Shown: one piece after another, positions 14,478 to 61,588 of the stretch
Layout of the letters: every line of letters begins with the position of its first letter
Position numbering within the stretch: the first letter of the stretch is position 1
DNA from: a bacterium
GTDB taxonomy: Bacteria; Patescibacteriota; Minisyncoccia; Phycocordibacterales; Zambryskibacteraceae
Length of the DNA stretch: 64,000 nucleotides
Assembly: GCA_030649135.1 (NCBI GenBank)
Contig: JAUSGI010000008.1
Span: 81,935 to 145,934, forward strand
Direction: 5' to 3'
Translations under genes and position numbers: made by a program
The notes under the pieces: model-generated
Told to the model about the DNA's origin: nothing
Databases searched by the model: none
Seen by the model: only the letters and a program-made list of their open reading frames with translations

Positions 14478-14503
14478 CAAACCCCGCCAGAGGCGGGGTT
14501 TGT
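14478..14503 (-). terminator. Rho-independent terminator built on a CCCCGCC-AGA-GGCGGGG palindrome (REP-like family member)
   Basis: 'aaaccccgccagaggcggggttt' is a perfect 7-bp GC stem flanked by A and T runs, so it can terminate in either orientation. It lies 23 nt downstream of the RRM gene stop. Confidence 0.65.
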
Positions 14504-14526
14504 TCACTAACTGCTTTCGCAGTTAA

Positions 14527-14808
14527 TTACATAGGTCGACGATCGCGAGGAGCGCGAGGCTCTAGCGGGCGAGCAACATTGACAGTCAACTTTCTACCTT
14601 CGTAGTCTTGACCATTGTACATGTTAATCGCTGCTTGAGCTTCATCATCATTTGACATCTCGACGAATCCGAAACCTTTGCTTCTGCCGGTCATGCGATC
14701 AATAATAATTGATGCAGAGGAGACAGCTCCAGCCTTTGCGAACAAGTCGCTAAGGGCTGCTTCTGTCGTGGAATAAGGAATCCCACCGACGTATAGCTTT
14801 GTTGCCAT
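14527..14808 (-). CDS. RRM-domain RNA-binding protein
   Basis: RNP-2 'KLYVGGI' and RNP-1 'KGFGFVEM' motifs. The start is placed at the internal ATG 'MATKLYVGG'. Confidence 0.8.
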   Translation of the reverse strand: MATKLYVGGIPYSTTEAALSDLFAKAGAVSSASIIIDRMTGRSKGFGFVEMSNDDEAQAAINMYNGQDYEGRKLTVNVARPLEPRAPRDRRPM

Positions 14809-14956
14809 TTTATTTGTGCCGACATTTAAGTTAAGCATGTAAGTGTCGGACCGATCTCATCTCGCGCTCTCTCTCGGATAAACCTCAAGTAACCTCTCAA
14901 CGAGAACCTTACATTGCTTGATTATAGCATATAGTCCTAATTTGTGCAAACTTGCT

Positions 14957-15163
14957 TTAACCATCCTTTCTTTTAAACCAACCCTTTAATTTATCCCATA
15001 GTAAGACTCTAAGTCCCAATAACTCTAAACCTACGAGCAAAAGAAAGCCTACCGGTGTAAAAGGGGTGATTACGGACAGCAAGCCGATAATGACCAACAC
15101 CACACCGGTAACTTTTCTGACCTTGGGATTATCAGTCCAAATTTTTTTAAAATATTCTTTCAC
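14957..15163 (-). CDS. Small membrane protein (hypothetical)
   Basis: 68 aa with one or two predicted TM helices and a basic C-terminus. Confidence 0.4.
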   Translation of the reverse strand: MKEYFKKIWTDNPKVRKVTGVVLVIIGLLSVITPFTPVGFLLLVGLELLGLRVLLWDKLKGWFKRKDG

Positions 15164-15424
15164 TTAAAGTGGACAAACCGTATCCCCCCTCTGACATTTA
15201 TCGTAATACTCCTGTGTCACGCAATTTAGAGGGACCCCATAATTTACACAACCCGCCGGACATTTTCCATTGGCATCCGGGTCAACATTACATTGACTAT
15301 TATCTACAGCGGGCGGCGTCAGATAAACTGCGTTTTGTTTGGTGTAAACAAAATAAGAACCTGCTCCGATAACCACAATGGCAGCTATGATAAGGGCTAT
15401 ATTTATAAATCCTTTTTGGTGCAT
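15164..15424 (-). CDS. Small secreted/membrane Cys-rich protein (hypothetical)
   Basis: An N-terminal TM/signal anchor is followed by 6 Cys in the C-terminal 50 aa. Confidence 0.4.
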   Translation of the reverse strand: MHQKGFINIALIIAAIVVIGAGSYFVYTKQNAVYLTPPAVDNSQCNVDPDANGKCPAGCVNYGVPLNCVTQEYYDKCQRGDTVCPL

Positions 15425-15456
15425 ATTGTTCTCTCAATTATACCACGATTCCCAAC

Positions 15457-15544
15457 TGGCGGAGGCGGAGAGAGTCGAACTCTCGAGGGCTTGCGCCCTA
15501 CACGCTTTCCAAGCGTGCGCACTAGACCACTATGCGACGCCTCC
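15457..15544 (-). tRNA. tRNA-Ser (anticodon GGA)
   Basis: Folded by hand. Acceptor is GGAGGCG/CGCCTCC. The D-stem is 3 bp. The anticodon loop is TTGGAAA. A long variable arm (GGGC-GCAA-GCCC) is present. The T-loop is TTCGACT. CCA is encoded. Confidence 0.8.
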
Positions 15545-15603
15545 GTGATTGAAGCATACTAACCCAATTTCCGCCTTTTTAAAATCTCCACCCATATTTT
15601 TTC

Positions 15604-16434
15604 TTACCACCGACCACTCGCTCCCCCGCCACCGGACATTCCCCCGCCGAAACCACCGAAGCCACCGGAGTGGCCACCTCCCCTGCCTCCGCCAATCCAC
15701 CATGGCGGTACTCCGCCCCGCGTGACCGCATTTTTGTAAGCTCGAGAAACCAGAAAGTCGAAAACCAATCCGACCAAAATGCTTAAGCCAATGAACAAAA
15801 CGCCGGATAAAAATATAAATCCCAGAACGCCTCCTATGATACCACCCGCCCACCACGACTTTGACCTACCTAAAATTGAGGCAAAGTAAATTAAGATAAA
15901 GATAGCGTAAGGAAAAAAGTTTGACCAATTCTCACCGCCGGATTCTACCCCAGAAGGTAATTCCTCACCTCCTATAAGTCCGATAATGATGTTAATAGCA
16001 TCATTGATACCGCCATCATAATTGCCCGCCCGAAATGCCGGTACAATAATCTCTCTGATGATTCTTCCGCTGTCGATGTCCGTAACTACCGACTCCAATC
16101 CGTAACCGACTTCTATACGCACCTCTTTATCCTCGAGAGATACCAGAAGAAGCAGGCCGTTATCTTCCTTTTCCTTACCGATTTTCCATTCTTGAAACAG
16201 TTTTTCCGCGTAAGTCTCGATAGTCTCGTCTTCGAGCTTAGGGATAGTGACTACCGTAATTTCATTACTGGTATCTTCTGCAAACTGCGTCAATCTCTGA
16301 TTGAGACTCGAAATAGTTTCCGGTTTGAGAACTTTCGCAAAATCATTGACAAATCCCATCGGCTGGCCGGGAGAAATATAGCCCAGGACAATAGCCGGAA
16401 ATATCAAAGAGAAAACGAGAGCAGACCACCTCAT
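15604..16434 (-). CDS. TPM-domain protein (TLP18.3/Psb32/MOLO-1 family) with a C-terminal TM helix and Gly-rich tail
   Basis: TPM-like 'GFVNDFAKVL...LLLLVSLEDKEVRIEVGYGLE'. The C-terminal 'GGGRGGGHSGGFGGFGGGMSGGGG' is Gly-rich. This protein is classically paired with LemA. Confidence 0.7.
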   Translation of the reverse strand: MRWSALVFSLIFPAIVLGYISPGQPMGFVNDFAKVLKPETISSLNQRLTQFAEDTSNEITVVTIPKLEDETIETYAEKLFQEWKIGKEKEDNGLLLLVSLEDKEVRIEVGYGLESVVTDIDSGRIIREIIVPAFRAGNYDGGINDAINIIIGLIGGEELPSGVESGGENWSNFFPYAIFILIYFASILGRSKSWWAGGIIGGVLGFIFLSGVLFIGLSILVGLVFDFLVSRAYKNAVTRGGVPPWWIGGGRGGGHSGGFGGFGGGMSGGGGASGRW

Positions 16435-16437
16435 CGC

Positions 16438-16995
16438 TTATTCGAGATTTACTGTAGGAGATGTCTCGGCCCCACTAGCTGATTCGAAGTATGAACGTTC
16501 ACCAAAACCAAGCAATCCCGCCAGAATATTCTTAGGAAATCTTTTTACGGAGATATTATAGTCACGAATCATGTCGTTGAAGCGGATGCGTTCCACCGAG
16601 ATACGGTTCTCCGTACCTTCAAGCTGGGTCATCAGGTCTCGCACATTGGAGGAAGACTGTAATTGCGGATAGTTCTCCATCACTACGAGGAGTCTCGCGA
16701 AAGCATTTTCGACTTGGCTCGCAGCGAGGGCCTTATCATTGGCGGAAGTAGCGCCGGCGTAGCGAGTGCGGGCTTCGGCAATATCACCGAAAATCTTTTG
16801 CTCTTGAGTTAAGATGCCTTTAACCGAATTTACCAAGTTAGGGATAAGGTCAAATCGTCTCTGATACTGTGTTTCCACTTTGGCCCACTGGGCGTCGGCC
16901 GCTTCGTTCAATGAAATCAGGCCGTTATAACCAGAAAATCCCCAAATGACGAGAAGAACGAGCACTCCTATAATTGCCAAAACGCTTTTGTTCAT
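16438..16995 (-). CDS. LemA-family protein
   Basis: TM helix followed by a LemA-like domain ('AQWAKVETQYQRRFDLIPNLV'). The start is placed at the internal ATG at 16995. It is paired with the TPM gene. Confidence 0.7.
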   Translation of the reverse strand: MNKSVLAIIGVLVLLVIWGFSGYNGLISLNEAADAQWAKVETQYQRRFDLIPNLVNSVKGILTQEQKIFGDIAEARTRYAGATSANDKALAASQVENAFARLLVVMENYPQLQSSSNVRDLMTQLEGTENRISVERIRFNDMIRDYNISVKRFPKNILAGLLGFGERSYFESASGAETSPTVNLE

Positions 16996-17029
16996 ATCTT
17001 TTTGGTTAGTTACCAAATTGTAAACTAAT

Positions 17030-18694
<1,665 letters not shown>

Positions 18695-19075
18695 TTATTT
18701 AATGACTGCTAAAATATTGTCTTCTTTCAAGAGATAAAGTTCCTCGCCGCCCTGTTCAACTTCGTCATATCCGTATTTGGAAAAGATGACAACGTCGCCA
18801 ACCTTAAGACGCACCGGTACCAATTTTCCCTCGATCCATTTCCCCTCCCCGACGGCTAAAACTTTACCTTGAGCCGATTTCTCTTTGGTCACGGATTCAG
18901 GGAGAATAAAATTGAGTGGAGACTTTTTACCTTGAGCTTGCCCCGCCACGGCGGGGCGCAGTCGAATCTCTTCTTCGGTAAAAGGACGAACCAGAACTCT
19001 GTCCCCAAAAGGCTTGATCTGGGCTTTTGCTTGCCCGGAGTTTTTGCGAGGGGTTTTTGTATTTTTCTTTTTCAT
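18695..19075 (-). CDS. groS: Co-chaperonin GroES with a Lys-rich N-terminal extension and an internal in-frame insertion
   Basis: 'IKPFGDRVLVRP' and 'GKVLAVGEG' are GroES motifs. The protein is 126 aa against about 95 aa typical. The extra 'EIRLRPAVAGQAQ' segment is encoded by the palindrome at 18940-18957. Confidence 0.85.
   Translation of the reverse strand: MKKKNTKTPRKNSGQAKAQIKPFGDRVLVRPFTEEEIRLRPAVAGQAQGKKSPLNFILPESVTKEKSAQGKVLAVGEGKWIEGKLVPVRLKVGDVVIFSKYGYDEVEQGGEELYLLKEDNILAVIK
18940..18957. repeat. REP-like palindrome CCCCGCC-ACG-GCGGGG, in-frame inside groES
   Basis: 'gccccgccacggcggggc' with flank 'ggcggggcaagctc' on the coding strand. It is identical in core to the copy at 28582-28597 and shares the flank with 61547-61560. 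Confidence 0.7.
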
Positions 19076-19124
19076 ATTGCCCGCACATTATATTCAAAAA
19101 AATCATAAAGTCAAATTAAATGGT

Positions 19125-19154
19125 TTGCGTGGCTGGTTTAAATTGTGCTAGTAT
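19125..19154 (+). promoter_or_regulatory. Putative sigma70-type promoter for secG
   Basis: TTGCGT, an 18-nt spacer, then TAGTAT with a TG dinucleotide 2 nt upstream of the -10, about 40 nt upstream of the secG ATG. Assigned by eye only. Confidence 0.3.
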
Positions 19155-19193
19155 AACCCGGTACAGGCCCCTCGACCTTACTCGGGGTAAACA

Positions 19194-19421
19194 ATGGCCC
19201 AGATTCTTCCCTACATTCAGATTCTTTTGAGCATCCTTCTTATAGGAGGAGTGCTCCTCCAGCGCTCGGAAGCCAGCCTCGGTTCCGCCTTTGGAGGGGA
19301 CAGTGCGATAGGAGGTCGTTTCATGCGACGTGGATTTGAAAAAATTCTTTTCAACGCTACGGTAGTAGTGGCTATCCTTTTCGCCCTTTCCGCTTTTGCC
19401 AGTCTTTTCCTCGACCGGTAA
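19194..19421 (+). CDS. secG: Preprotein translocase subunit SecG
   Basis: 75 aa with two TM helices and 'ILLIGGVLLQRSEASLGSAFGG', the SecG signature. Confidence 0.75.
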   Translation: MAQILPYIQILLSILLIGGVLLQRSEASLGSAFGGDSAIGGRFMRRGFEKILFNATVVVAILFALSAFASLFLDR

Positions 19422-19427
19422 GTAACA

Positions 19428-21185: not shown

Positions 21186-21198
21186 AATTTAAGGAAAC

Positions 21199-24119: not shown

Positions 24120-24130
24120 AAAAATTTATA

Positions 24131-24162
24131 AAAAAATAGGACCCGCCAAGTAGGCCGGGTCC
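24131..24162 (-). terminator. Hairpin terminator for island gene a (GGACCCGCC...GGCCGGGTCC followed by a T-run on the minus strand)
   Basis: An A-run at 24131-24137 on the plus strand precedes a GC hairpin at 24139-24162. Confidence 0.5.
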
Positions 24163-24199
24163 TGTGGCAGTTTGGGGAGGTCTGCCAACCTTTACTTCT

Positions 24200-24388
24200 C
24201 TACTCGGCGGGTCGGAACTTACGACGAGGCCGACTTTGTTTCAGGTCTTCGTCACACCCTACCATCTCCCTTTCTATCACATCCTGGTCAGAGAGGTCTT
24301 CATCCTCCGACCCATGCATCAGTCCAAAACCCTTAAGGAGTCGAATTTCCTTACTCGAAGGATCTACGCCTGTCTTTCTCTTTTTCAT
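24200..24388 (-). CDS. Island gene a: small acidic hypothetical protein
   Basis: 62 aa. SD 'AAGGAG' lies 6 nt upstream of the ATG. The gene sits in the ~60% GC segment and is followed by a hairpin terminator. Confidence 0.5.
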   Translation of the reverse strand: MKKRKTGVDPSSKEIRLLKGFGLMHGSEDEDLSDQDVIEREMVGCDEDLKQSRPRRKFRPAE

Positions 24389-24514
24389 CTGGGCTCCTTA
24401 TGTCCTGCTTCCCTTTCGATTATGTTCAGGGTGAAGGCTTACAGACACTAACGCTCTGTCCTTTAGAGTGGCATGAACAAGCTAGTTTGTCAATTAGTTG
24501 TAATCGTTGTATAG

Positions 24515-24544
24515 AAAAAGGACCCTCCATGCTGGCAGGGTCCC
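24515..24544 (-). terminator. Hairpin terminator for island gene b (AAAAA-GGACCCTCC-N-AGGGTCC)
   Basis: 'aaaaaggaccctccatgctggcagggtccc'. It is near-identical in design to the hairpin at 25517-25545. Confidence 0.5.
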
Positions 24545-24621
24545 GTTGTGAGTTGAGGCCGTGTCCTCAACTCGTTTGTACTTAGGCGTGACATCGGCAC
24601 GCATTGGGATCTGAAACTCTG

Positions 24622-24852
24622 CTAGTCCCCGATCGCCCCACTTCGTGAGAACGGGCGAGAGACGCCCGGTAACACCCGGGACGGATCCATCCCGAGGCGC
24701 TGCCTCAGCCACGCGACCCACTCCGGATAGCTCGGAGTGAGAAGCACGACGACCTCGTCGTAGGTCGGCGTGTCCCCAAGCACGTCGCACACGGCTGGCA
24801 AAAGAAGCCGGCGTGTTTCCTTGTCGAGTCTCCGACCCGATGCGTCATTCAT
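24622..24852 (-). CDS. Island gene b: hypothetical protein
   Basis: 76 aa with a strong SD 'GAGGAGAAGG' upstream of the ATG. The gene is GC-rich. Confidence 0.5.
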   Translation of the reverse strand: MNDASGRRLDKETRRLLLPAVCDVLGDTPTYDEVVVLLTPSYPEWVAWLRQRLGMDPSRVLPGVSRPFSRSGAIGD

Positions 24853-25085
24853 TGCCTTCTCCTCATCGCGCTTTGCGCGACTTTAAACATTTAGCAGTGC
24901 GTCCTCTTGCGAGGCCTATACGCACTGCGGTTCAGCCCCCTCTGTGCGGGGAATCGATACTTGATTATATTTTCTTTCTCAAAGAACTAACTGTTTCGCC
25001 CTTTCGGACTCATCAGCGCAGATACACATCTGCGAACAGCGGGAAGTTTTGCTGAGATACTTCCCGAAACTCTGGGTTTGCACGG

Positions 25086-25406
25086 TTACCCCTTCTTCTT
25101 CTTGCTACCGGCACCCATGCCAGCGGCCATCCGGCGCTGCTCCTCCGCGCGCTCGCTCCGGTGGGCGAGGTAGCGCTTGTGCGCCGCCTCACGGATGGAG
25201 GCCGAGAACTCGGTCTCCTTCCGACGCCGCTCGGACAGCATGCGCCTGGCGCACGCCAGGCGTGGCCGCCAGAAATCGGAGGTCGCGAGTTGCTTGTCGA
25301 GCTCGACCGCGGCGATATCCGCCGCAACGGTCGAAGTGGCGACCTGCACCGGCAGGGTGCAGGCCAGAAACTCTATCACTCGGCCAATGGAGCGTGTCGC
25401 ATTCAT
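25086..25406 (-). CDS. Island gene c: hypothetical Ala/Arg-rich protein with a KKKKG tail
   Basis: 106 aa with SD 'AAGGAGAA'. Upstream on the minus strand lies TTGACAA-N17-TATCAT. Two hairpins follow downstream. Confidence 0.5.
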   Translation of the reverse strand: MNATRSIGRVIEFLACTLPVQVATSTVAADIAAVELDKQLATSDFWRPRLACARRMLSERRRKETEFSASIREAAHKRYLAHRSERAEEQRRMAAGMGAGSKKKKG

Positions 25407-25516
25407 GGCGTTCTCCTTATCGTGCCTCCCCTTCGTCTATACTTAGGGTGAGGACTTTCTAGCTACAATGATAGCATAATACAACTTATTTGTCAATGGC
25501 TTTAAATAGTTAAAAG

Positions 25517-25545
25517 TAAAAGGGCCCTCCGTGTAGGCAGGGCCC
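25517..25545 (-). terminator. Hairpin terminator for island gene d (AAAA-GGGCCCTCC-N-AGGGCCC)
   Basis: 'aaaagggccctccgtgtaggcagggccc'. Confidence 0.5.
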
Positions 25546-25564
25546 AGTCGAAACGCCACCTAGT

Positions 25565-25960
25565 CTAGTAACTGGTGGGGAAAGCAGATGTCAGCGCCTC
25601 CCCCTGGTCGCTTGCCGGGTTGGGGTTGAACCAAACCCGAGAGATGGACCCATGGCCGATGTGATACACGCCGGCCAGAGTACATGAGCCATCCCGCTGT
25701 GCGGGGTGATGTACGAACACCCCGAAACGCAGACGGGCCAGCGCGGCCGCGATGCAGAACGGCACATCCGCGACGGCATAGACGAAGCCATCGCCATGCT
25801 CGCGGACGTAGTCCGCGAGCCCATCCGTGGTGACGAACACCGTGGGGTCCTTCACGATCTCCACGTAAACACCGTGGAGAGTTCGCATCGCCCGCCGCTG
25901 TGTGGGCGACATGTCGTAACGCGATAACCAATAAATCCTCCCGATGTAAATTCTGTTCAT
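25565..25960 (-). CDS. Island gene d: hypothetical protein
   Basis: 131 aa starting at the ATG at 25960 ('MNRIYIGRIYW...'), with SD 'GGGGGAA'. Upstream on the minus strand lies TTGACAA-N17-TATTAG. No family recognised. Confidence 0.5.
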   Translation of the reverse strand: MNRIYIGRIYWLSRYDMSPTQRRAMRTLHGVYVEIVKDPTVFVTTDGLADYVREHGDGFVYAVADVPFCIAAALARLRFGVFVHHPAQRDGSCTLAGVYHIGHGSISRVWFNPNPASDQGEALTSAFPTSY

Positions 25961-26068
25961 GGTTCCCCCACTCTGCCTCCCATTTCTCGGAGGGCTATAG
26001 GTAATACAACCTTGGTCTGCTCTCACTAATAGCACAGCACAATTCTCTTGTCAACAGCGTCCATAAAT

Positions 26069-26503
26069 CTAATACACATTTAGGAGTTTGAAAATTGGAG
26101 CAAGGAACGGGTCGAAATGAGTACCGTAGACGGTGGCGCCGAAGAGTCCGCCGGCAACCACAATAAAAAATAGTCCGATAATAGCCAAGGGAATTATGAT
26201 GACTGGCAAGAGCATTTTAGACCATCTAACGTAAGCCAGAGAAATAATGCCGAAGATAGTGGCAGTGATAAGAATAAAAATTTTATACATGGTTACCAGA
26301 GGACTATCCCCCGCCAAATTAGCGCTCATGTAAGCGGTGACAACCGTAGCAATAGCGCCCAGCTCACCGACTACGAGCAAAGTTCCTTTGATAGGGAGCC
26401 AGTGCGGAGAGTCCAATAATTTTTTGAAACGCATTAGTTCAAAAACAGTATAAGTTGTCAAAAATGCTATGGGGTAGTGTATCACCAGTGGATGAATGTC
26501 CAT
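26069..26503 (-). CDS. DUF2231-like membrane protein
   Basis: 'MDIHPLVIHYPIAFL' matches the DUF2231 N-terminal signature and is followed by 4 TM helices. Confidence 0.55.
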   Translation of the reverse strand: MDIHPLVIHYPIAFLTTYTVFELMRFKKLLDSPHWLPIKGTLLVVGELGAIATVVTAYMSANLAGDSPLVTMYKIFILITATIFGIISLAYVRWSKMLLPVIIIPLAIIGLFFIVVAGGLFGATVYGTHFDPFLAPIFKLLNVY

Positions 26504-28426: not shown

Positions 28427-28663
28427 TGCGGGATCGTCTAATGGTAGCCTGCCCGCCATCGCTGGGAGTTGAGCTGGGAGATCGTCTAATGGTAGGACAC
28501 CTCCCTCTGAAGGAGGTTATCTTGGTTCGAGTCCAAGTCTCCCAGCTCAGGCCCTAGCAGGCGGGGACATCGCCATCCCTGCCCCGCCGTGGCGGGGTGA
28601 AAAGGCGAGCATCTTGCTTGTCCCGGCCAGCCGGGCGGGAGTCGAGTCCAAGTCCCGCAGCCA
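28427..28663 (+). pseudogene. Fragmented tRNA-Gln(UUG)-like gene interrupted by GC-rich palindromic insertions and by an intact tRNA-Gln(CUG)
   Basis: Segments match the intact tRNA-Gln(TTG) at 39279-39352 in collinear order. 28427-28447 matches nt 1-21 (21/21). 'GACATCGCC' at 28567-28575 matches nt 22-30 (9/9). 'GGCGAGCATCTTG' at 28604-28616 matches nt 39-51 (12/13). 28647-28663 matches 'TCCAAGTCCCGCAGCCA' (17/17). They are separated by inserts that include ccccgccgtggcgggg. Confidence 0.55.
28475..28545 (+). tRNA. tRNA-Gln (anticodon CTG)
   Basis: Hand fold. Acceptor is TGGGAGA/TCTCCCA with a U1-A72 pair, as in bacterial tRNA-Gln. D-stem is GTC/GAC. Anticodon stem CCTCC/GGAGG encloses loop CTCTGAA. 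The T-arm is CTTGG-TTCGAGT-CCAAG. No CCA is encoded. Confidence 0.75.
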
Positions 28664-39703: not shown

Positions 39704-40747
39704 CTATTTGACAGTGTCGGCGAGAGCAAGCTCGAGAGCCAGTTCTGGGATACTGGTGCGGCCGGAGTCTTCGTAAGCAGTAATGAAGCGCAGGAGAACG
39801 TCGGCAGTTAGGTCAGTCCCAGCTTTGTCTCTAAGGGTTTGCAAAAACTTAAAGTCATCTTCACTAACTTCTCCGGCAATATATTCGTCCATACCTGCTT
39901 TGAGCCGCAGGAGAAAGAGGAAACGCAGGCGCTCGAGAATAAGTTTGGCGAAAAGTTTCATCTCGGCATTGGCTCCGGCGGCGCTCTGGATTGCTTTCAT
40001 CCCCTTTTCTAAATCTTTTTCGACAATCGATTCGAGAATCTGGCGCACCAGCTCCGCTTTCGGCGCACCAGTTACTTGTTCTATCTCCTCTCTGGTTATC
40101 TTCTTACTTTTGGTAGAAGAAAGCACTTTTTCCAAAATCCCATGCGCATCGCGGAAAGAGCCGTCACCCAGTAGCGCCACCAGTTCCGCCGCGGCCGGCT
40201 CAAGCGCTGCGCCCTCCTTTTTCGCCACCGAGAGTGCGAAATCTTTGAGCGTCGCTTGATTGGGTTGTTTGAACGAAAAAGTTTGGCAACGAGAAATCAC
40301 CGTCTCCGGCACTTTCTCAAGTTCGGTGGTAGCTAAGATGAAGACCACATGCGCCGGTGGTTCCTCAAGAGTCTTTAGAAACGCGTTCCAGGCATCTTTG
40401 GTAAGCATGTGCACTTCGTCGATAATGTAGACCTTATATTTGGACTCGAATGGCAAAGTATTGACCGATTCCCGAATCTCCCGCACGTCGTCGATACCAC
40501 GGTTGGAAGCGGCGTCCATCTCGACGAGGTCATTGGCCGAGGTGCCAATTTCTCGCGACAAAATTCTCGCCATGGAAGTCTTGCCGGTACCTCGTGAGCC
40601 AGAGAAAAGGTAGGCATGGGAAATATTGCCGAGTTTGATTGCCCCTTCCAAAACTTTGACAATATGACCCTGCCCGATAATATCTCCAAAGGTTTGGGGA
40701 CGATATTTGCGGTAAAGCACTCCCCCGCTCTTCTCTCCTTTTTTCAT
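39704..40747 (-). CDS. dnaX: DNA polymerase III subunit gamma/tau (short)
   Basis: 'YRPQTFGDIIGQ', Walker A 'GSRGTGKTS', 'DEVHML' and sensor motifs. Confidence 0.85.
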   Translation of the reverse strand: MKKGEKSGGVLYRKYRPQTFGDIIGQGHIVKVLEGAIKLGNISHAYLFSGSRGTGKTSMARILSREIGTSANDLVEMDAASNRGIDDVREIRESVNTLPFESKYKVYIIDEVHMLTKDAWNAFLKTLEEPPAHVVFILATTELEKVPETVISRCQTFSFKQPNQATLKDFALSVAKKEGAALEPAAAELVALLGDGSFRDAHGILEKVLSSTKSKKITREEIEQVTGAPKAELVRQILESIVEKDLEKGMKAIQSAAGANAEMKLFAKLILERLRFLFLLRLKAGMDEYIAGEVSEDDFKFLQTLRDKAGTDLTADVLLRFITAYEDSGRTSIPELALELALADTVK

Positions 40748-41727
40748 GAACGTAGTATATCAGATACTATTTTGTTAACCTCGTTTGCGTTGTTCGTTTC
40801 CATAAGTTTGGCGCGTAAATCCCCTGCTTTATCAAAGCCCGTAACGTAGGCCTTAAAATGTTTCTTCATCACAGAAAAGTTTTTGTACCCACCGAGCAGT
40901 TCTTCAAATAACTTTGTGTGCTCAACCAGCACCCGCAGTTTTTCTTCGGTTGCCGGAACATATCCTTCCACAAATAGCCACGGGTTTCCGAAAATGGCCC
41001 GGCCGAGCATGACACCATCACAGCCCGTCTCTTCGACTCTCATCCTTGCTTCTTTCAAATCTTTAACATCCCCATTACCCAAAATTAAAGTGTCTTTACC
41101 ACTTGCATCACGAATCTCGACTGCCAGTTTGACAAACTCCCAACGAGCGGGCACCTTCGACATTTCTTTCCTGGTACGAGCATGAATGGTAACCATCGCC
41201 ACTCCCTCTTTAAGCATTTCTGACAGCCAGCTCTCCAGGTCAGGACGACTGTACCCTATACGAGTTTTGACCGAGACAGGTAGTGTGCTAGCCCCTTCTT
41301 TAGCCGCCCTTACAAGCTCCCGAGCCAGCACCACGTTCTTCATAAGTGATGCGCCGGCACCTTGTTTCTCGATACTTTTGTCCGGACAACCCATATTTAT
41401 ATCGACACCATCAAAGCCAAGCTCCTTTGCGAGCTCGGCGGCTTTTTTCATATGTTCCGGAGAGGAGGTAAAGAATTGCGCCACGATTGGCCGCTCCGCT
41501 TCGCTATATTCCAGATTCTTCAAAAGTTTCTTTTTCCCCTCTTCCGGCGCAAGTGCCAAGCCGTCGGCAGAAGTAAATTCTGTCCACATCACGGCGGGTT
41601 TACCCCGCCCACCTAGGCGGGGCGAGCCGTACTTAGCGATTATTCTGCGAAAAGCGGCATCCGTAACATCCGCCATGGGAGCGAGGACGAAAACAGGTTT
41701 TTCTATTTTCTGCCAGAAATTATCCAT
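40744..41727 (-). CDS. dus: tRNA-dihydrouridine synthase, carrying an in-frame 10-aa palindromic insertion
   Basis: 'FVLAPMADVTDAAFRRII', 'MWTEF' and the TIM-barrel Dus family. The inserted 'SPRLGGRGKP' lies between the conserved 'AKYG' and 'AVMWTEF' and is encoded by the palindrome at 41603-41622. Confidence 0.8.
   Translation of the reverse strand: MDNFWQKIEKPVFVLAPMADVTDAAFRRIIAKYGSPRLGGRGKPAVMWTEFTSADGLALAPEEGKKKLLKNLEYSEAERPIVAQFFTSSPEHMKKAAELAKELGFDGVDINMGCPDKSIEKQGAGASLMKNVVLARELVRAAKEGASTLPVSVKTRIGYSRPDLESWLSEMLKEGVAMVTIHARTRKEMSKVPARWEFVKLAVEIRDASGKDTLILGNGDVKDLKEARMRVEETGCDGVMLGRAIFGNPWLFVEGYVPATEEKLRVLVEHTKLFEELLGGYKNFSVMKKHFKAYVTGFDKAGDLRAKLMETNNANEVNKIVSDILRS
41603..41622. repeat. 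REP-like palindrome CCCCGCC-CACCTA-GGCGGGG, in-frame inside dus
   Basis: 'ccccgcccacctaggcgggg', with an adjacent ggcggg-ttta-ccccgcc half overlapping at 41594-41609. Confidence 0.7.
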
Positions 41728-49169: not shown

Positions 49170-49215
49170 TTCCACTGCTCCCCGCCTCGTCGCAAGATTT
49201 GGCGGGTTTTCGTTT
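49170..49215 (+). terminator. Rho-independent terminator after the small membrane-protein gene
   Basis: 'ctccccgcctcgtcgcaagatttggcggg' followed by 'ttttcgtttt'. Confidence 0.45.
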
Positions 49216-53926: not shown

Positions 53927-53969
53927 GCAAATATTATATCAAATGTTTTTATGCTATTCTATGGTAGAC

Positions 53970-54052
53970 GCTGGAGTGATGGAATGGCAGACATGCAGCA
54001 CTCAAAATGCTGTGGGCGCAAGCCCGTGTGGGTTCAAGTCCCACCTCCAGCA
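53970..54052 (+). tRNA. tRNA-Leu (anticodon CAA)
   Basis: Hand fold. Acceptor GCTGGAG/CTCCAGC, 3-bp D-stem, anticodon stem CAGCA/TGCTG with loop CTCAAAA, a 15-nt variable arm (GGGC-GCAA-GCCC), T-arm GTGGG-TTCAAGT-CCCAC. No CCA is encoded. Confidence 0.8.
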
Positions 54053-54053
54053 C

Positions 54054-54632
54054 ATGCTAAATCTTACCGATAAAACTTTGGTGGCATATGTTATTGGTAT
54101 CGCTCTTGGCGATGGAAATCTTTCTAATCCGAATGGACGTGCAGTTAGATTAAGAATAACCTGTGACTCTAAATATCCCTTTTTGATTTCTAAGATTGAA
54201 CAGTCATTAAAGAAATTGGCCCCTAAAAATAAAGTCTCTCGAATCAATAGAGGAGATAATGCCATAGATGTCAGCTGCTATTCAAATCAATGGGAGCAAT
54301 TACTCGGTTGGAAGGCCTACGGTGGCTCAAAAATAAGACAATCGGTTCGCATACCTAGTTGGATATTTAGAAATAAAAAACTTTGTCAGGCTTGTTTGTG
54401 CGGACTATGGGAGACCGATGGTTCGGTTTACAAAGACAGAAAATATATAACAGCAAATTTTGTGACTCAGATTCCAAGCCTCGCACAAGGTGTGGCGAAG
54501 ATGATTCTTAAAACCCGCTACAAGGCTTCTATACAAAAATTGGTCTTATCTGATAACAGAGAAAAATTTACTTTCAGAATTCATAGAAATGCTTCTCAGT
54601 TTATTAAAGAAATGTCTATAGAGAAAAGGTGA
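54054..54632 (+). mobile_element. Free-standing double-motif LAGLIDADG homing endonuclease gene
   Basis: Motif 1 'VIGIALGDGNLS' and motif 2 'LCGLWETDGSV'. The ATG sits 2 nt after the tRNA-Leu 3' end. The frame is open back through the tRNA to 53925. Confidence 0.7.
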
Positions 54633-54770
54633 TACAGCAAGCGTCCATCATAGAATGTGGATTCTCTCTCCCGGCACCCATAATTGACTTCCTATCAGTG
54701 TGATATAAAATTCGTGTTAAACAGTACAAACGCGACTTATCAGATAGAACCAAGGGAGGAGGTGAAGGAC

Positions 54771-55160
54771 ATGACACCAGGCGATAAACTGCAGTTATGC
54801 CAGCAGGTTGGGGAGTGCCTCCGAAACTCTCCGGTAAAAGATTCTCTCACGAAGCGCTGGGAGAATCAGCTCTTCGCGAGGCATCTAGAGTATCCGGAGC
54901 GAAGTCCCCAAATCTGCACGACGGTGCAGTTGGAAATCGGACCTACAACCGGCTGGTTTACACTTGAGCAGACGGGTGGTGGTTTCTTGGCGCACATCTG
55001 GGCGCCAGGCGCCCGAGAGTCCAAGGAGGTCGAGAAGGAGGCACGCGATCTCGGTGACCATCTGTTGTCGGTCCTTCCTGCCTCATGCGTTCGAGTCCGT
55101 TTTGCCAAACCGCACGAGTTCCTCTCTCGTAAAGGGTGGTCAATCCACAACGGCAACTAG
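54771..55160 (+). CDS. Hypothetical protein in GC-rich islet
   Basis: 129 aa with a very strong SD 'GGGAGGAGGTG', about 58% GC and a perfect terminator downstream. The ORF is open back to 54684. Confidence 0.5.
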   Translation: MTPGDKLQLCQQVGECLRNSPVKDSLTKRWENQLFARHLEYPERSPQICTTVQLEIGPTTGWFTLEQTGGGFLAHIWAPGARESKEVEKEARDLGDHLLSVLPASCVRVRFAKPHEFLSRKGWSIHNGN

Positions 55161-55181
55161 GTATAGACGGGCAATCATCCC

Positions 55182-55224
55182 GGGCCTCTCCGACACCGCT
55201 GTCGGAGAGGCCCTCTTCTTTTTT
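55182..55224 (+). terminator. Strong rho-independent terminator
   Basis: A 14-bp stem (gggcctctccgaca / tgtcggagaggccc) is followed by a T-rich run ending in TTTTTT. Confidence 0.7.
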
Positions 55225-55339
55225 AAATTTATTTTCATAAATGGTTAGTTTTTACTGCATGTGCTTGACTTTTAGCATATATCTATTGTATAATCTAAGC
55301 AGAAAATAAAACGATCTTAGCCCAGGGCCCAAGGAGGGC

Positions 55340-55795
55340 ATGATGCACAAGTCACTAGTTTTCGCATGGATATGTGTGATCTGTTGGTCATTCCTTCCGA
55401 ATATTTTGGAACGGAAGCTGGATGGTTTCCACCCTGCGTCGATCCTCGTCCTCGTCTACTCCGTGATGCTCTCGCTCGCCTTTGTACGACTGGGACACGT
55501 AAAGTACATGGGAGAGCCGGTGCACTTCCCGACGGGCATCTTCCTTACCATCGCTGTCGGTACTGCCTTCCTCTGGTTTGTGGGTGACTACTCGTATACC
55601 AGCGCATTCTTGAGCCAGGGTAGCCTGGTCGCGATCATGACTATTTTGGCTTTATCACCCATCGGTGCAACCCTCGTGAAGATGGTTTGGGCAGGGGAGC
55701 TCCCGAACCGTTATCACATCGTGGCGTATGTGGCAGTCCTCATAGCAATCTACTTCACGGCGAAAGGTAATACCATCGCCAACTCAGTCCCCTGA
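55340..55795 (+). CDS. Hypothetical 4-TM membrane protein in GC-rich islet
   Basis: 151 aa with SD 'AAGGAGGG' and GC-rich codon usage unlike the core genes. Confidence 0.5.
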   Translation: MMHKSLVFAWICVICWSFLPNILERKLDGFHPASILVLVYSVMLSLAFVRLGHVKYMGEPVHFPTGIFLTIAVGTAFLWFVGDYSYTSAFLSQGSLVAIMTILALSPIGATLVKMVWAGELPNRYHIVAYVAVLIAIYFTAKGNTIANSVP

Positions 55796-55907
55796 AATAG
55801 ACATTGCGAGTTCAAGCCTCGCATGGGAAAGCTCAACACAGCTTACCGTGCGGGGCTTTCTTATTTTCATAACATACTCTGTATATTTGCAATGTATAAT
55901 AAGATGA

Positions 55908-58619: not shown

Positions 58620-59449
58620 CCGTTCGATTAGCCAAGAGATTCGGGGGAGAAATAATCTCTGCCGATTCGCGACAAGTATATAAGGGTCTTGATATCGGCA
58701 CCGGCAAGATTACCAAGCAGGAAATGCGGGGAGTCCCCCATCATCTGCTGGATGTGGTAAATCCTCGAAAACAATTCTCGGCATCGAAATACAAAAAACT
58801 AGCTGATGAAAAAGTACGATATATCGCACAAAAGCATAAGTTACCCATTGTGGTAGGAGGGACGGGGTTTTATATTGATGCCTTGACAGGCAGAGCTAAT
58901 TTTCCGGAGGTGGGACCCAATCTTCTATTACGCAAGAAGCTGGAGAAAAAAACTGCGTCTGAACTTTTCCGAATGTTAAATAAAAAGGACCCCCGGAGAG
59001 CTGGAGCAATTGATTTGAGAAATAAAGTACGTGTGATACGGGCATTGGAAATTGTCGAGGCTCTGGGCAAGGTGCCCCAAGCTAGCCCCAAGCCCCTAGA
59101 ACCTAGCCCCTTTATCTACATCGGCCTCAAACCGGATAATCTTGACGGGAGAATTCATAAGAGACTAATAGAGAGGCTTGATGGGATGATTCGCGAGGGC
59201 AAAAAACTCCACACTCAAGGACTCACCTACAAGCGCATGCACCAGCTCGGGCTGGAATATAGATATGTTGGTATGTACCTACAAGGCAAGCTCTCACGGG
59301 AAGAAATGGTTGATAAGTTATATATTGAAATAAAACGTTACGCCAAGCGCCAAATGACTTGGTTCAAACGCAATAAAAAGATTAGGTGGTTTAAACCGGA
59401 GGAATACAAAAAGATAGAAAGATTAGTAAATGTTCAGCTAAACACCTAA
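58559..59449 (+). CDS. miaA: tRNA dimethylallyltransferase
   Basis: P-loop 'GPTASGKS', 'ISADSRQVYKGLDIGT' and 'VGGTGFY'. Its start overlaps the ATPase 3' end by 61 nt in another frame. Confidence 0.85.
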   Translation: MAQQKVLVILGPTASGKSDLAVRLAKRFGGEIISADSRQVYKGLDIGTGKITKQEMRGVPHHLLDVVNPRKQFSASKYKKLADEKVRYIAQKHKLPIVVGGTGFYIDALTGRANFPEVGPNLLLRKKLEKKTASELFRMLNKKDPRRAGAIDLRNKVRVIRALEIVEALGKVPQASPKPLEPSPFIYIGLKPDNLDGRIHKRLIERLDGMIREGKKLHTQGLTYKRMHQLGLEYRYVGMYLQGKLSREEMVDKLYIEIKRYAKRQMTWFKRNKKIRWFKPEEYKKIERLVNVQLNT

Positions 59450-59842
59450 AAACTTTCGAATTTCAGCTATGGCTAGCATGTCATGGTCAATCATCTGGAG
59501 ATTTCCTAAATCATCAAACTTCCGCCAACTCTTGCCTTGACCCTCATGCTGTATAAGCGGCTGTGAAGAATCGTATTCCTCAACAAAAACGTACTTGATA
59601 TTTTCATCTTCCTTCCAATTAAATTTCTGAACTAACACCCGAACTGGCTTAGATACTTTATATTCTAGTTCTTCAAAAATTTCTCGCTCTAAAGCCGCCT
59701 CTGGAGTTTCCCCTTTCTCTATCCCTCCCCCAAAGAAACCCCAGTAGTTAGGAAGTCTTTTCGCATCCTCGTCTCTATGTTGAAGAAGGATTTCCTTATC
59801 CTTATTGTATAAGGCCAATACTGAAATATTTCTTACTGCCAT
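59438..59842 (-). CDS. NUDIX hydrolase
   Basis: Nudix box 'GGGIEKGETPEAALEREIFEELE'. Confidence 0.8.
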   Translation of the reverse strand: MAVRNISVLALYNKDKEILLQHRDEDAKRLPNYWGFFGGGIEKGETPEAALEREIFEELEYKVSKPVRVLVQKFNWKEDENIKYVFVEEYDSSQPLIQHEGQGKSWRKFDDLGNLQMIDHDMLAIAEIRKFLGV

Positions 59843-59845
59843 ATG

Positions 59846-59916
59846 CGGGCGATCGAGGAATCGAACCTCGGATAGCAGATTTGGAGGCCGCAGTTATACC
59901 ACTTAACTAATCGCCC
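59846..59916 (-). tRNA. tRNA-Trp (anticodon CCA)
   Basis: Hand fold. Acceptor GGGCGAT/ATCGCCC, D-stem GTTA/TAAC, anticodon loop CTCCAAA, T-arm CGAGG-TTCGATT-CCTCG. There is one mismatch at the 31:39 pair. No CCA is encoded. Confidence 0.7.
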
Positions 59917-59939
59917 TTCGAGGGCTATATTAGCACAGA

Positions 59940-60113
59940 CTAAGCTTTCTTCTCCTTATAAACCGTGTGTTTGCGGACGATGGGGTTATATTTTTTAAAC
60001 TCGAGTTTACGCTCTACGGATTTGCGATTTTTGCGAGAATAATAGGTGTGGCCTTTGCCGGCACCCTTTTCGTCCCCTACCGAGACTAGCTTGATGAGAT
60101 GATTCTGCGACAT
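59940..60113 (-). CDS. rpmG: 50S ribosomal protein L33
   Basis: Not in the supplied ORF track because it is under 60 aa. Translation is 'MSQNHLIKLVSVGDEKGAGKGHTYYSRKNRKSVERKLEFKKYNPIVRKHTVYKEKKA'. The pattern 'Y.T.KNKR...ERLELKKY.P..RKH..YKE' matches L33. Confidence 0.75.
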   Translation of the reverse strand: MSQNHLIKLVSVGDEKGAGKGHTYYSRKNRKSVERKLEFKKYNPIVRKHTVYKEKKA

Positions 60114-60226
60114 ACTAGACGGCTATTCGGCAATATAAACCTCTGACCCTTCTTTGGCTGGTTGACAGCCACAGAAAGCTTGTCGTACCAGTGCATCACC
60201 TTGCCAATCGGATTGTCTTTTGACAT
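60086..60226 (-). CDS. Possible small ORF (46 aa) overlapping the rpmG start; function unknown
   Basis: Translation is 'MSKDNPIGKVMHWYDKLSVAVNQPKKGQRFILPNSRLV...'. No SD checked and no family recognised. It may be spurious. Confidence 0.2.
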   Translation of the reverse strand: MSKDNPIGKVMHWYDKLSVAVNQPKKGQRFILPNSRLVCRRIISSS

Positions 60227-60296
60227 GACAATATATGTTACACCATTTATTAGATTTTGCAACTGTCTATAGTGACGATTATGGTATACTTGTAGA

Positions 60297-60581
60297 ATGC
60301 TTACTCCTCAATATTTTGTTCGTGGTTTGACACTGGGTATCGGACTAATCTATCTGATCATTGGGATAGCGAGTTTGCCGTTTACTCTTATGGCAGTAGA
60401 TCCCTCGCCGGATGGTTGGCCGGCTTTTCGTCCGTCAGTTCATCCAATAATACTAGTGCTATTCACATTGTCATTTATTTCAGCTTCAATAATCTTAATC
60501 AGACCGAGTTCCCCATCTAGACTTCGTCGGATATCTTTCTATCTCCCGTTAATAATTACTATCCTGATGTTATGGAAATAA
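60297..60581 (+). CDS. Hypothetical small membrane protein
   Basis: 94 aa with 2-3 TM helices. Confidence 0.4.
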   Translation: MLTPQYFVRGLTLGIGLIYLIIGIASLPFTLMAVDPSPDGWPAFRPSVHPIILVLFTLSFISASIILIRPSSPSRLRRISFYLPLIITILMLWK

Positions 60582-60750
60582 CTTTGGACCAGCTAGCTTG
60601 CCTTAGGCAGATTTTTTAATTAACTTAAAAACAAAAGACGCCCACCCCGCCTCCAGCACGATGCTGAGGGGAAATGAACGAAATCAATATAAAAGTAATT
60701 AGTGTGCCTGGCCGGGGTCTCTCGCGACTCTTCCAGATTCGTCCCTTTAA

Positions 60751-61170
60751 CTATGCCTCCGGAGTCTTGATTGGTACTGGTAAGCCAAACTTTCTGTGAT
60801 AGTCGAGGTCTTCAGCTTCGTAATCGAAAGTTAACTCTTCTCCTTCCGGAATATCATGGGCGGCAATATCAGAATAAATTCCATTTTCTAGAGAACCATT
60901 TGTAATGTTTGGTTCTTTCGAGTGATTGACAAATCGAGCATCATCAAAACATAGAATGTAAATGTCTGGCTTTTCTTTATCAATATAAGAATAGTTTAGA
61001 ATTTGCTCGCGACTATATTCAGAGAGGGCAACTAGATCTTCTTTCTTCAACTCTAAATCAAGGCCTGGAGTAAACTTCCAAGTAGGCGTGCCCTTTTTGA
61101 CGAACTCCGCAGCAAATAATCCAATACCGTTAATTTTACTTGGACCAATTCTTGTTTTAACGAGTAGCAT
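60751..61170 (-). CDS. SET-domain protein (putative protein-lysine methyltransferase)
   Basis: 'GIGLFA', 'FVNHSKEPN' (the NHSxxPN motif) and 'ELTFDY' (the ELxFDY motif). The start is the internal ATG 'MLLVKTR'. The supplied ORF's extended N-terminus is rejected because it overlaps tRNA-Tyr. Confidence 0.7.
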   Translation of the reverse strand: MLLVKTRIGPSKINGIGLFAAEFVKKGTPTWKFTPGLDLELKKEDLVALSEYSREQILNYSYIDKEKPDIYILCFDDARFVNHSKEPNITNGSLENGIYSDIAAHDIPEGEELTFDYEAEDLDYHRKFGLPVPIKTPEA

Positions 61171-61186
61171 ATAACATATTTTATAC

Positions 61187-61273
61187 TGGTGCGCCGGGCA
61201 GGATTCGAACCTGCGTAGACCAAAGGTCGAGGGATTTACAGTCCCTTGCGATTGACCGCTCCGCCACCGACGC
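61187..61273 (-). tRNA. tRNA-Tyr (anticodon GTA)
   Basis: Hand fold. Acceptor GCGTCGG/CCGGCGC with one G-U pair, anticodon loop CTGTAAA, long variable arm, T-arm CAGGTTCGAATCCTG, CCA encoded. Confidence 0.75.
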
Positions 61274-61281
61274 AATAACCA

Positions 61282-61521
61282 TCAATTTATCAGTTTTTTC
61301 AAACCATTGCCACCTTTGTAAGATTTGATCTTCTTTTCTCTCTCAAAAGCTTCTTGTTGTCCCTCGAACAATTCCAAATGGACTATTTCCCACGGACAGC
61401 CAAGTTTTGTAGATAAATTTTGACCTTTATTATGTTCCTTCAGCCTCCTTTTATAATTATTTGAGCACCCTATATAATATTTTCTATTCTTTTTGCTCTG
61501 AAGAATATATACATGCCACAT
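61282..61521 (-). CDS. GIY-YIG nuclease-superfamily small protein (YhbQ/UPF0213-like)
   Basis: 'WHVYILQS...KYYIGCSNN...RRLKEHN' matches the GIY-YIG core. Confidence 0.7.
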   Translation of the reverse strand: MWHVYILQSKKNRKYYIGCSNNYKRRLKEHNKGQNLSTKLGCPWEIVHLELFEGQQEAFEREKKIKSYKGGNGLKKLIN

Positions 61522-61538
61522 GTCCGTGCGATTGATTC

Positions 61539-61588
61539 CGCCCCGCCTCGGCGGGGCAAGCTCCGCCTTTACCCCGCTGTGGCGGGGA
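61539..61588. repeat. Two tandem REP-like palindromes (CCGCCCCGCC-TC-GGCGGGGC and ACCCCGC-TGT-GGCGGGGA) between the GIY-YIG gene and clpB
   Basis: The first copy carries the 'ggcggggcaagct' flank, identical to the groES-internal copy. On the minus strand the pair would act as a terminator for clpB. Confidence 0.65.

Follow-up and report, generated by a model that had tools for sequence, protein, structure and literature searches.

A family of all-G/C hairpin micro-elements linked to GIY-YIG nuclease genes and tRNA-gene remnants in Patescibacteria

Introduction

Short palindromic repeats, such as repetitive extragenic palindromes (REPs), Rickettsia palindromic elements (RPEs) and mitochondrial GC clusters, are common, yet their movement is mostly unexplained. 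Here we analyze palindromes of the form CCCCGCC-loop-GGCGGGG in a 64-kb stretch of contig JAUSGI010000008.1 (positions 81,935 to 145,934, forward strand; GenBank assembly GCA_030649135.1) from a bacterium of the Zambryskibacteraceae (Patescibacteriota), hereafter the window. An earlier reading of its letters (the sequence-only reading) had proposed that near-identical copies at six or more sites belong to a mobile or copy-spreading element. We report that the palindromes are a non-random, copy-spreading family, that the copies in groES and dus are insertions, and that the hairpins are tightly linked to cassettes in which a miniature GIY-YIG nuclease gene accompanies a tRNA gene. The combination of few recent copies, empty sites in relatives and bits of donor flank at the junctions makes the copying mechanism directly testable.

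Results

A recurrent G/C palindrome in the window

Homologues of its GroES, Dus and ClpB proteins put the window in the Patescibacteria (Parcubacteria), close to Zambryskibacteria. The genes of the window have ordinary housekeeping functions; 30 of its open reading frames (ORFs) were scanned against Pfam, with no match to a transposase among them, and the others were named by synteny with the gene tables of relatives, with a few left without an assignment. The G+C content, computed at ~46-47%, agrees with the roughly 46% first estimated. Our census of the family covers these 64 kb, and the sites are as follows (L numbers are our handles for compared loci).

14482-14498, no strand assigned: hairpin CCCCGCC-aga-GGCGGGG between a co-directional RRM gene (14527-14838, minus) and DUF192 gene (14021-14464, minus)
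18940-18960, minus strand: 21-nt in-frame insert in groES (18695-19075, minus), TGCGCCCCGCCGTGGCGGGGC, encoding L-RPAVAG
28582-28597, plus strand: hairpin CCCCGCC-gt-GGCGGGG within the anticodon loop of an old tRNA-Gln gene
41602-41625, minus strand: 24-nt in-frame insert in dus (40744-41727, minus), TCGCCCCGCCTAGGTGGGCGGGGT, encoding SPRLGGRG
61537-61559, minus strand: hairpin unit 1, TT-GCCCCGCC-ga-GGCGGGGC-GGA (TT-GCCCCGCCgaGGCGGGGC-GGA), in the D loop of a tRNA-Tyr remnant
61568-61587, minus strand: hairpin unit 2, CCCCGC-caca-GCGGGG-TAAA (CCCCGCcacaGCGGGG-TAAA), between U8 and G9 of the same remnant and common to L093
49180-49206, plus strand: possible distant relative, held with low confidence, consisting of CCCCGCC, a 14-nt loop, GGCGGG and a T run, upstream of topA

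The exact pattern CCCCGCC-N{2,8}-GGCGGGG occurs five times (14482-14498, 18941-18956, 28582-28597, 41603-41622 and 61541-61556), with loops of 2-6 nt. The chance expectation from 100 dinucleotide-preserving shuffles of the window is 0.00 per window, none of the shuffles containing a copy, and the same motif occurs four times in a comparison set of 1.13 Mb made up of the groES loci of 80 relatives, which makes the window ~22x denser. The excess over chance that had been proposed is therefore real. The sixth proposed site (61572-61587) is a variant with a 6-bp stem, CCCCGCtgtgGCGGGG, so that five of the six share the full 7-bp stem; all of the sites had been placed at the right locations, with shifts of at most 1 nt. 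Counted with its complement, the 7-mer CCCCGCC is present 24 times in the window, where base composition predicts ~6, and 11 of these 24 occurrences lie in the hairpins. The C-rich arm comes first in every copy. Two of the six copies are in coding sequences and three are in tRNA-gene remnants.

Folding gave the expected hairpin for each of the six sequences, as had been predicted, with the 14482 copy alone far above shuffled controls. This copy forms a 13-bp stem through its flanking aacaaa/tttgtt (14476-14504; DNA fold -16 kcal/mol, z = -8.4), and its z-score is extreme because the stem runs on into these A/T runs. No Rfam family reached its gathering score at any copy, and the matches returned were chance-level ones to CRISPR-DR10 and to miRNAs. 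We rejected a CRISPR repeat as the identity of the palindromes, as the CRISPR-DR10 matches stayed below threshold (17.5 bits, with the gathering score at 39) and no array is present.

A related arrangement is found in the sequence for the C-terminal tail of GroEL (17038-17064, minus), where CCCGCC and GGCGGGG are separated by a 14-nt loop and relatives have TSSPIGGQGGGMDY of equal length. This may be a rearranged or decayed copy of the family; given the equal length of the relatives' tails, an insertion cannot be called.

In-frame insertions in groES and dus

Comparison with orthologous loci shows that the two coding copies entered frames that are intact in relatives, and that the palindrome is not ancestral coding sequence at either site. 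The groES empty site in L087 and L088 reads cttcgac/aagctcagg (the slash marks the insertion point), and the window reads cttcgac-TGCGCCCCGCCGTGGCGGGGC-aagctcaagg, a gain of 21 nt that bears out the in-frame insertion suggested by the sequence-only reading. In a GroES protein alignment the insert is present in the window and in four relatives (P0002-P0005) and missing in relatives of similar identity; among GTDB representatives, the closest groES locus is 71% identical to that of the window. L081 and L084, whose GroES proteins are 84-85% identical to that of the window, have kept the insert with a decayed right arm (GGCGAAG and GACGAGG, respectively) and with an inverted 2-nt loop (ac for gt). 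Alignment to PDB 4v4o_O puts the insert in the mobile loop, immediately on the N-terminal side of the hydrophobic tripeptide.

The groES core is also the reverse complement of the core of the 28582 copy, as had been noted. An extended flank, GGCGGGGCAAGCT, had been described as shared by the groES copy and one of the pair near clpB, and it is indeed present at 18947 (minus) and 61550 (plus). However, its 'aagct' already stands in the groES empty site, so we regard these bases as junction microhomology and not as part of the element.

The dus copy gave a parallel result, again in line with the proposed in-frame insertion. The syntenic loci L090 and L091 (Dus 81% identical) have the empty site tatggc/aaaccg where the window has tacggc-TCGCCCCGCCTAGGTGGGCGGGGT-aaaccc, a gain of 24 nt, and the insert is missing in 118 of 120 homologues. 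The sole other carrier, L089, has an insert with identical site and ends and a different loop (caaat). As the two carriers are not nearest relatives (81 homologues resemble the window protein more closely than that of L089 does), the site was either hit twice or a short tract passed between lineages. Alignment to PDB 1vhn and to solved Dus structures puts the insert at the gap between helix alpha1 and strand beta2. The predicted insert-bearing peptides are RLRPAVAGQAQGK for GroES and YGSPRLGGRGKPAVMWTEFTSADGLALAPEEGK for Dus.

Two further coding inserts were found in L089. Near the N-terminus, its Dus protein has a decayed copy, KLKDDSSRRGGVF, which four other homologues have in variant form and which adds 6 residues net, and its SerRS ends in ...IVRPAPAVAGQAHYK before the stop codon where that of L090 ends in ...IVR, a 36-nt extension. 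The lengths of all four coding inserts (21, 24 and 36 nt, and 6 residues net) are multiples of three, and they are therefore predicted to be read through by the ribosome; a pure G/C stem, moreover, is free of stop codons in all frames. Among orthologues we saw no intermediate stages of palindrome build-up, decay (in groES of L081 and L084) being the one process observed.

Several other short insertions lie near these genes. Another family of micro-inserts has TTCGACAAGCTCAGG as its basis (L090 10411-10434, L087 9621-9666, L001 14670, L105 1025 and window groES 18926-18940), with 6 occurrences in 1.8 Mb compared with ~0.2 expected. In the Dus gene of L090 it is a clean 24-nt in-frame insert. 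In this clade's GroES it encodes LRQAQG of the mobile loop, with the CCCCGCC hairpin nested within it. Between groES and secG, a lineage-specific 24-nt GC-rich segment (19169-19192) is extra relative to L087.

A GIY-YIG gene and a tRNA-Tyr remnant downstream of clpB

The tandem pair of palindromes at 61541-61588 had been described as standing before clpB. The clpB gene is on the minus strand with its stop codon at 61642, which places the pair downstream of clpB and upstream of a short ORF for a GIY-YIG protein, which the sequence-only reading had not noted. On the minus strand the features follow one another in this order.

61633-61605, minus strand: promoter-like site TTGCAA-17-TAGAAT from a promoter scan
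61527-61595, minus strand: 5' remnant of tRNA-Tyr, with tRNA positions 1-26 plus the two hairpin units
61282-61521, minus strand: ORF for a 79-aa stand-alone GIY-YIG nuclease, UPF0213-like (PF01541, E = 3.8e-16)
61187-61273, minus strand: intact tRNA-Tyr

In L176 (ClpB 92% identical), an intact tRNA-Tyr comes right after the same promoter, and neither the ORF nor the hairpins are present. From this uninterrupted gene it follows that the nuclease gene was inserted, with the first 26 nt of tRNA-Tyr being duplicated in the process, and that the hairpins were inserted in the dead duplicate. The GIY-YIG cassette is thus a presence/absence polymorphism at a fixed tRNA-Tyr site between the window and L176. 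The placement of unit 1 was taken from an alignment with the intact tRNA-Tyr and L093-L096; this unit recurs, with compensatory stem changes, in loci whose GIY-YIG proteins are 57-77% identical.

The GIY-YIG protein consists of the 79-aa catalytic domain alone and has weak matches to the UPF0213 structures 1zg2 and 1ywl. The UPF0213 group of stand-alone GIY-YIG proteins is one that we take to be the bacterial Slx1-like cluster; eukaryotic Slx1 is a structure-specific nuclease.

A second endonuclease gene of the window also abuts a tRNA gene. It is a LAGLIDADG_3 ORF in the region 53970-54632, and it starts at 54054, one base after tRNA-Leu(CAA) (53970-54053).

A split tRNA-Gln gene

The copy at 28582 had been assigned to a broken tRNA-Gln gene, and we found it in the anticodon loop of just such a gene. 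The old tRNA-Gln gene (acceptor TGCGGGA/TCCCGCA) is split into two parts, arranged as follows.

28427-28447, plus strand: 5' part of the old tRNA-Gln, its first 21 nt, tgcgggatcgtctaatggtag
28475-28546: complete replacement tRNA-Gln(CTG) with a different acceptor, preceded by 27 nt and followed by ~18 nt before the old 3' part
28565-28663, plus strand: 3' part of the old tRNA-Gln, which holds both hairpins
28622-28635, plus strand: second, different hairpin, CCCGGC-ca-GCCGGG, inserted in the T arm of the old tRNA-Gln

On either side of the 28582 hairpin, the sequence ATCGCC...GGCGAG matches the anticodon stem of tRNA-Gln(TTG) in the window. In L005, a GIY-YIG ORF and an intact tRNA-Gln are followed by a partial tRNA-Gln whose anticodon loop contains a homologous hairpin.

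Hairpins and tRNA copies at GIY-YIG loci of other metagenomes

To survey such cassettes more widely, we searched contigs from metagenomes with a five-protein GIY-YIG alignment and obtained 80 loci, 75 of them non-redundant. An intact same-strand tRNA begins no more than 80 nt after the ORF in 58 of these 75 loci, and in 14 a complete tRNA ends just before it. A partial copy of the same tRNA precedes the ORF or, in some loci, follows it. Within 130 nt upstream of the ORF, 57 of the 75 loci carry a hairpin of the CCGC type. Counting perfect stems of at least 6 bp in this 130-nt interval and in the remainder of the same loci, we observed 5.34 CCGC hairpins per kb upstream of GIY-YIG ORFs and 0.156 per kb elsewhere, a 34-fold difference; other GC hairpins occurred at 0.30 and 0.165 per kb, respectively. 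Hairpins whose G-rich arm comes first are less common than those that begin with the C-rich arm, and a 3-nt loop is dominant. In loci that were not selected for GIY-YIG genes, all classes of GC hairpin are 2.5-3.4x enriched within 300 nt of tRNAs. As this enrichment is generic, proximity to tRNA genes is not specific to the family, and the specific signal is the position upstream of GIY-YIG ORFs.

The hairpin commonly takes the place of a tRNA arm. In remnants of Gly, Glu, Ala and Pro tRNAs, [C/T]CCCGCC-NNN-GGCGGG[G/A] substitutes base for base for the 17-nt anticodon arm (examples are L149, L150, L171, L172, L116, L130, L110 and L114), whereas some tRNA-Pro copies have the hairpin in place of the D arm. 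In cassettes of the Ser type the tRNA is broken after the second anticodon base and continues as a twin hairpin. We aligned 18 twin-hairpin units at fixed length, with no selection on pairing at the closing position. Four CCGC/GCGG pairs are invariant, and the pair that closes the loop varies among C-G, U-A and A-U. Covariation at two pairs amounted to 13 double changes with 1 unpaired cell, a score reached in 0 of 500 shuffles. The invariant core together with the covarying closing pair indicates that both the pairing and the core sequence are under selection. We also compared the loop triplets with the anticodons of the remnants and discarded a link between them, as no consistent relation emerged.

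Some tRNA-like copies with a hairpin for an anticodon arm are full or near full length (L172 924-998, L116 ~6345-6410 and L150 ~1330-1400). Programs that find tRNA genes call hairpin-bearing remnants odd tRNAs; ARAGORN, for instance, reports a 'tRNA-Phe(aaa)'.

Junctions of the solo copies

Read on its other strand, the groES insert is ccttGAGCTT/GCCCCGCCacGGCGGGGCGCA/GTCGaa (GAGCTT/GCCCCGCC-ac-GGCGGGGCG), and the tRNA-Tyr D-loop unit ggcgGAGCTTGCCCCGCCgaGGCGGGGCGGAatc (GAGCTTGCCCCGCC-ga-GGCGGGGCG) is identical to it over 14 + 9 positions around the loop. Here too the flanking bases, GAGCTT, are already in the groES empty site. The dus insert ends in GGGCGGGGT/AAA (GGGGT/AAA), GIY-linked units commonly end in GGGGTAAA, and L096 has TCGCCCCGCCaaaaGGGCGGGGTAAA. 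The SerRS extension of L089 reads TTCGA(c), hairpin, AAGCTCA, a composite identical to that in groES, and its empty site already ends in TTCGA. We read these shared junction bases as a better fit to templated, microhomology-primed copying than to precise excision and insertion of the transposase type. The right flanks TAAA and TGAA are the 3' halves of the anticodon loops of tRNA-Tyr (cuGUAAA) and tRNA-Gln (cuCUGAA), which suggests anticodon loops as the primary home of the hairpin, with copied units carrying a little donor flank.

The intergenic copy at 14482

The sequence-only reading had taken the 14482 copy to be a terminator. Its position between the RRM and DUF192 genes is that of a terminator, and the corresponding site in L081 and L084 is occupied by another terminator-like hairpin, aaaaaaGCCCCttcaGGGGCtttttt, which indicates that an older stem-loop was replaced by a hairpin of the family. 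Judged from this position and from its sequence, the copy now probably acts as a terminator. A lineage-specific 16-nt hairpin, TAACTGCgaaaGCAGTTA, adjoins it at 14512-14527.

We rejected ordinary termination as the role of all copies. A T run follows the GC stem at 14482 and, loosely, at 49180, and the 61541/61572 pair has none; copies within coding sequences cannot terminate.

Other features of the window and of its relatives

A 1.9-kb island of 55% G+C (24165-26070) is missing from the syntenic loci L081 and L084, and its ORFs have no Pfam match. Two similar hairpins with ...taggc loops (24139-24162 and 25522-25545) mark its bounds, and a strong promoter-like site lies at 25496-25468 (minus). 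Within the island, positions 24988-25042 (minus) give a well-formed, sub-threshold match to a type III hammerhead ribozyme (37.5 bits, with the gathering score at 48.5, and E = 6e-6 over a search space of 2.2 kb), with the CUGAUGAG and CGAAAC cores intact. In topA, a 37-nt insertion relative to L090 (50392-50428) looks like a tandem duplication containing GAGGTTAAACCTC.

Two relatives encode a RAYT-like (REP-associated tyrosine transposase) Y1_Tnp gene, at 995-1654 in L175 and 789-1436 in L178 (ClpB 92-93% identical). It lies between the genes for IF-2 and a cysteine desulfurase-like protein, and TTGTCCTAAGCTCGGCTTAGGACA hairpins stand on both sides of it in the style of REPs and RAYTs.

Discussion

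On balance, and with considerable doubt, we favor the reading that the palindromes are one family of all-G/C hairpin micro-elements that has its home in the tRNA scars of GIY-YIG cassettes and has spread by microhomology-primed templated copying, with selection acting on the copies in coding DNA. The family would be defined by its CCGC...GCGG core, with stems 5-8 bp long and loops that are short and variable. Its usual home would be the non-functional duplicate that arises when a miniature GIY-YIG gene inserts into a tRNA gene, where the hairpin would replace or interrupt an arm of the remnant, most often the anticodon arm. Hairpin tracts of ~20-36 nt may occasionally be copied from such scars to other sites, through template switching at a stalled hairpin or through break repair primed by microhomology, and the lineage of the window would have gained several extra copies in this way. 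Survivors in coding sequence would be those with a length that is a multiple of three and a position in a tolerant surface loop, such as the mobile loop of GroES or the alpha1-beta2 loop of Dus, and one copy may have taken over the place of an older terminator stem-loop. We infer both the copying mechanism and any role of the nuclease from sequence comparison.

Several observations weigh against this reading. The precise replacement of tRNA arms by the hairpin is not accounted for by it. The window holds a single GIY-YIG gene. The microhomology argument rests on three junctions, and no copying event was directly observed. The loops of the window copies vary from 2 to 6 nt and those of GIY-linked copies are mostly 3 nt, so that there must have been several source units or the loops must mutate fast. 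Finally, we found no family hairpins in the ~8.7-kb loci examined in close relatives (ClpB 92-93% identical), and the amplification must therefore be recent.

A more ambitious proposal, which we put forward as a tentative possibility, is that of a hitherto undescribed selfish system of Patescibacteria. A bare 79-aa GIY-YIG gene would invade tRNA genes and bring or regenerate a working tRNA, while a conserved CCGC/GCGG hairpin recognized by the nuclease would disarm the displaced tRNA in its anticodon or D arm and would also move alone, in the fashion of REPs and RAYTs, into other DNA including essential genes.

Rather unlikely, in our estimate, is a direct partnership in which the small GIY-YIG protein would recognize the hairpin as single-stranded or cruciform DNA, cut it and mobilize both the hairpins and its own cassette, as a REP/RAYT-like pair with GIY-YIG replacing the Y1 transposase. 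The 34-fold enrichment of CCGC hairpins beside GIY-YIG ORFs speaks for such a role, as do the dominant fixed 3-nt loop, the occurrence of hairpins on either side of the ORF according to cassette type, the membership of the protein in the UPF0213 group of stand-alone GIY-YIG domains, and the invariant core with a covarying closing pair, which is what would be expected of a hairpin recognized by a protein. However, the protein is a bare catalytic domain, the solo copies of the window have loops of 2-6 nt, and these copies carry neighboring flank bases that fit templated copying better than precise excision and insertion.

We regard it as improbable that the hairpins arose independently in place, as terminators, RNA stabilizers or a protein-binding site, and converged under selection with no copying. 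Such an origin would suit the 14482 copy, which has flanking A/T runs where relatives have another terminator, the maintenance of pairing in GIY-linked hairpins by compensatory changes, and the occasional single copies in distant relatives. Yet blocks of 21 and 24 nt arrive whole in otherwise conserved coding sequence, identical extended flanks recur at unrelated loci, G-first hairpins are rarer than C-first ones, and a hairpin in the GroES mobile loop or in Dus has no plausible regulatory role.

Least of all do we expect the palindromes to be classical REPs moved by a RAYT (a Y1 transposase of the IS200/IS605 type) encoded elsewhere in the genome: REPs, like these copies, are palindromes that are short and rich in GC, and they can act as terminators or mRNA stabilizers (PMC3733652); a Y1_Tnp gene does lie two genes upstream of clpB in L175 and L178, but that gene is flanked by another palindrome that is not in the window, the CCCCGCC copies have no GTAG/CGTC tag and lie inside coding sequences and tRNA remnants, and none of the 30 window ORFs scanned against Pfam matches Y1_Tnp.

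The favored reading of a copied, tRNA-scar hairpin family accounts for odd peptide insertions rich in P, R, G and A (RPAVAG and SPRLGGRG) in otherwise conserved proteins, and such inserts and remnants can mislead annotation, alignment and tRNA prediction. More broadly, the link to a minimal GIY-YIG nuclease whose gene splits tRNA genes suggests that nuclease and hairpin form a partnership of a new kind in the ultra-small genomes of the Candidate Phyla Radiation (CPR).

The closest precedent by phylum is found in rRNA genes of the CPR, which carry short non-intron insertions at the tops or bases of stem-loops, some encoding GIY-YIG proteins (PMC11270868). These insertions resemble our cassettes in phylum, in their stem-loop sites in a structural RNA and in the GIY-YIG proteins, and differ in that they are described for rRNA only, with no tRNA, conserved hairpin family or protein-coding insertions. 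Group I introns are also known in Patescibacteria tRNA genes (PMC13011429), and neither of these two papers describes the hairpin family, GIY-YIG cassettes at tRNA genes or arm replacement. In our literature search the family and the Patescibacteria tRNA-gene cassettes were undescribed; as the coverage of this search was incomplete, novelty is not proven. Free-standing homing endonuclease genes by tRNA genes, such as segB of phage T4 (PMC2330249), likewise place a GIY-YIG ORF among or beside tRNA genes and are present or absent between genomes. Unlike them, the cassette described here encodes a 79-aa catalytic domain without a DNA-binding domain, and its tRNA gene is split and partially duplicated, with a conserved hairpin in the dead duplicate.

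Among the smallest elements, the mitochondrial GC clusters and the ultra-short and double-hairpin elements of yeast, Podospora and Allomyces are also tiny GC-rich palindromes of compact, AT-richer genomes, found in intergenic and coding DNA and sometimes beside mobile endonuclease ORFs; in Allomyces atp6, an endonuclease ORF brings a replacement gene segment. They are organellar and unrelated in sequence, and to our knowledge tRNA-arm replacement is undescribed for them. RPEs are selfish elements of ~100-150 bp that have long-range palindromic structure and are not all-G/C. Like the groES and dus copies, they are palindromic, lie in frame in surface regions encoded by essential genes of a reduced genome and are absent from orthologues, whereas the inserts here are 21-36 nt, have pure G/C stems and are linked to tRNA-gene scars and a nuclease gene.

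REPs are defined as imperfect palindromes of 20-40 bp with a GTAG or CGTC tag at one end, and the tag defines most of them (PMC3733652); in the flanks of all six window copies we found neither tag nor its complement next to the stem. With REPs and their composites, the bacterial interspersed mosaic elements (BIMEs), our palindromes share dispersal as short GC-rich palindromes, some at gene ends, and a link to one dedicated gene of nuclease type with copies on its flanks. They differ in being perfect, untagged and 16-20 nt long, at six per 64 kb, and in lying within coding sequences and tRNA remnants, and the linked gene encodes a GIY-YIG nuclease and not a Y1 transposase, the RAYT-like gene of relatives using another palindrome. 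The likeness to REP/BIME elements and RPEs put forward in the sequence-only reading thus fails as membership, given the missing tag, the low copy number, the intragenic positions and a size of 16-24 nt compared with 100-150 bp, and holds for behavior, that is, for dispersal and for in-frame copies in coding sequences.

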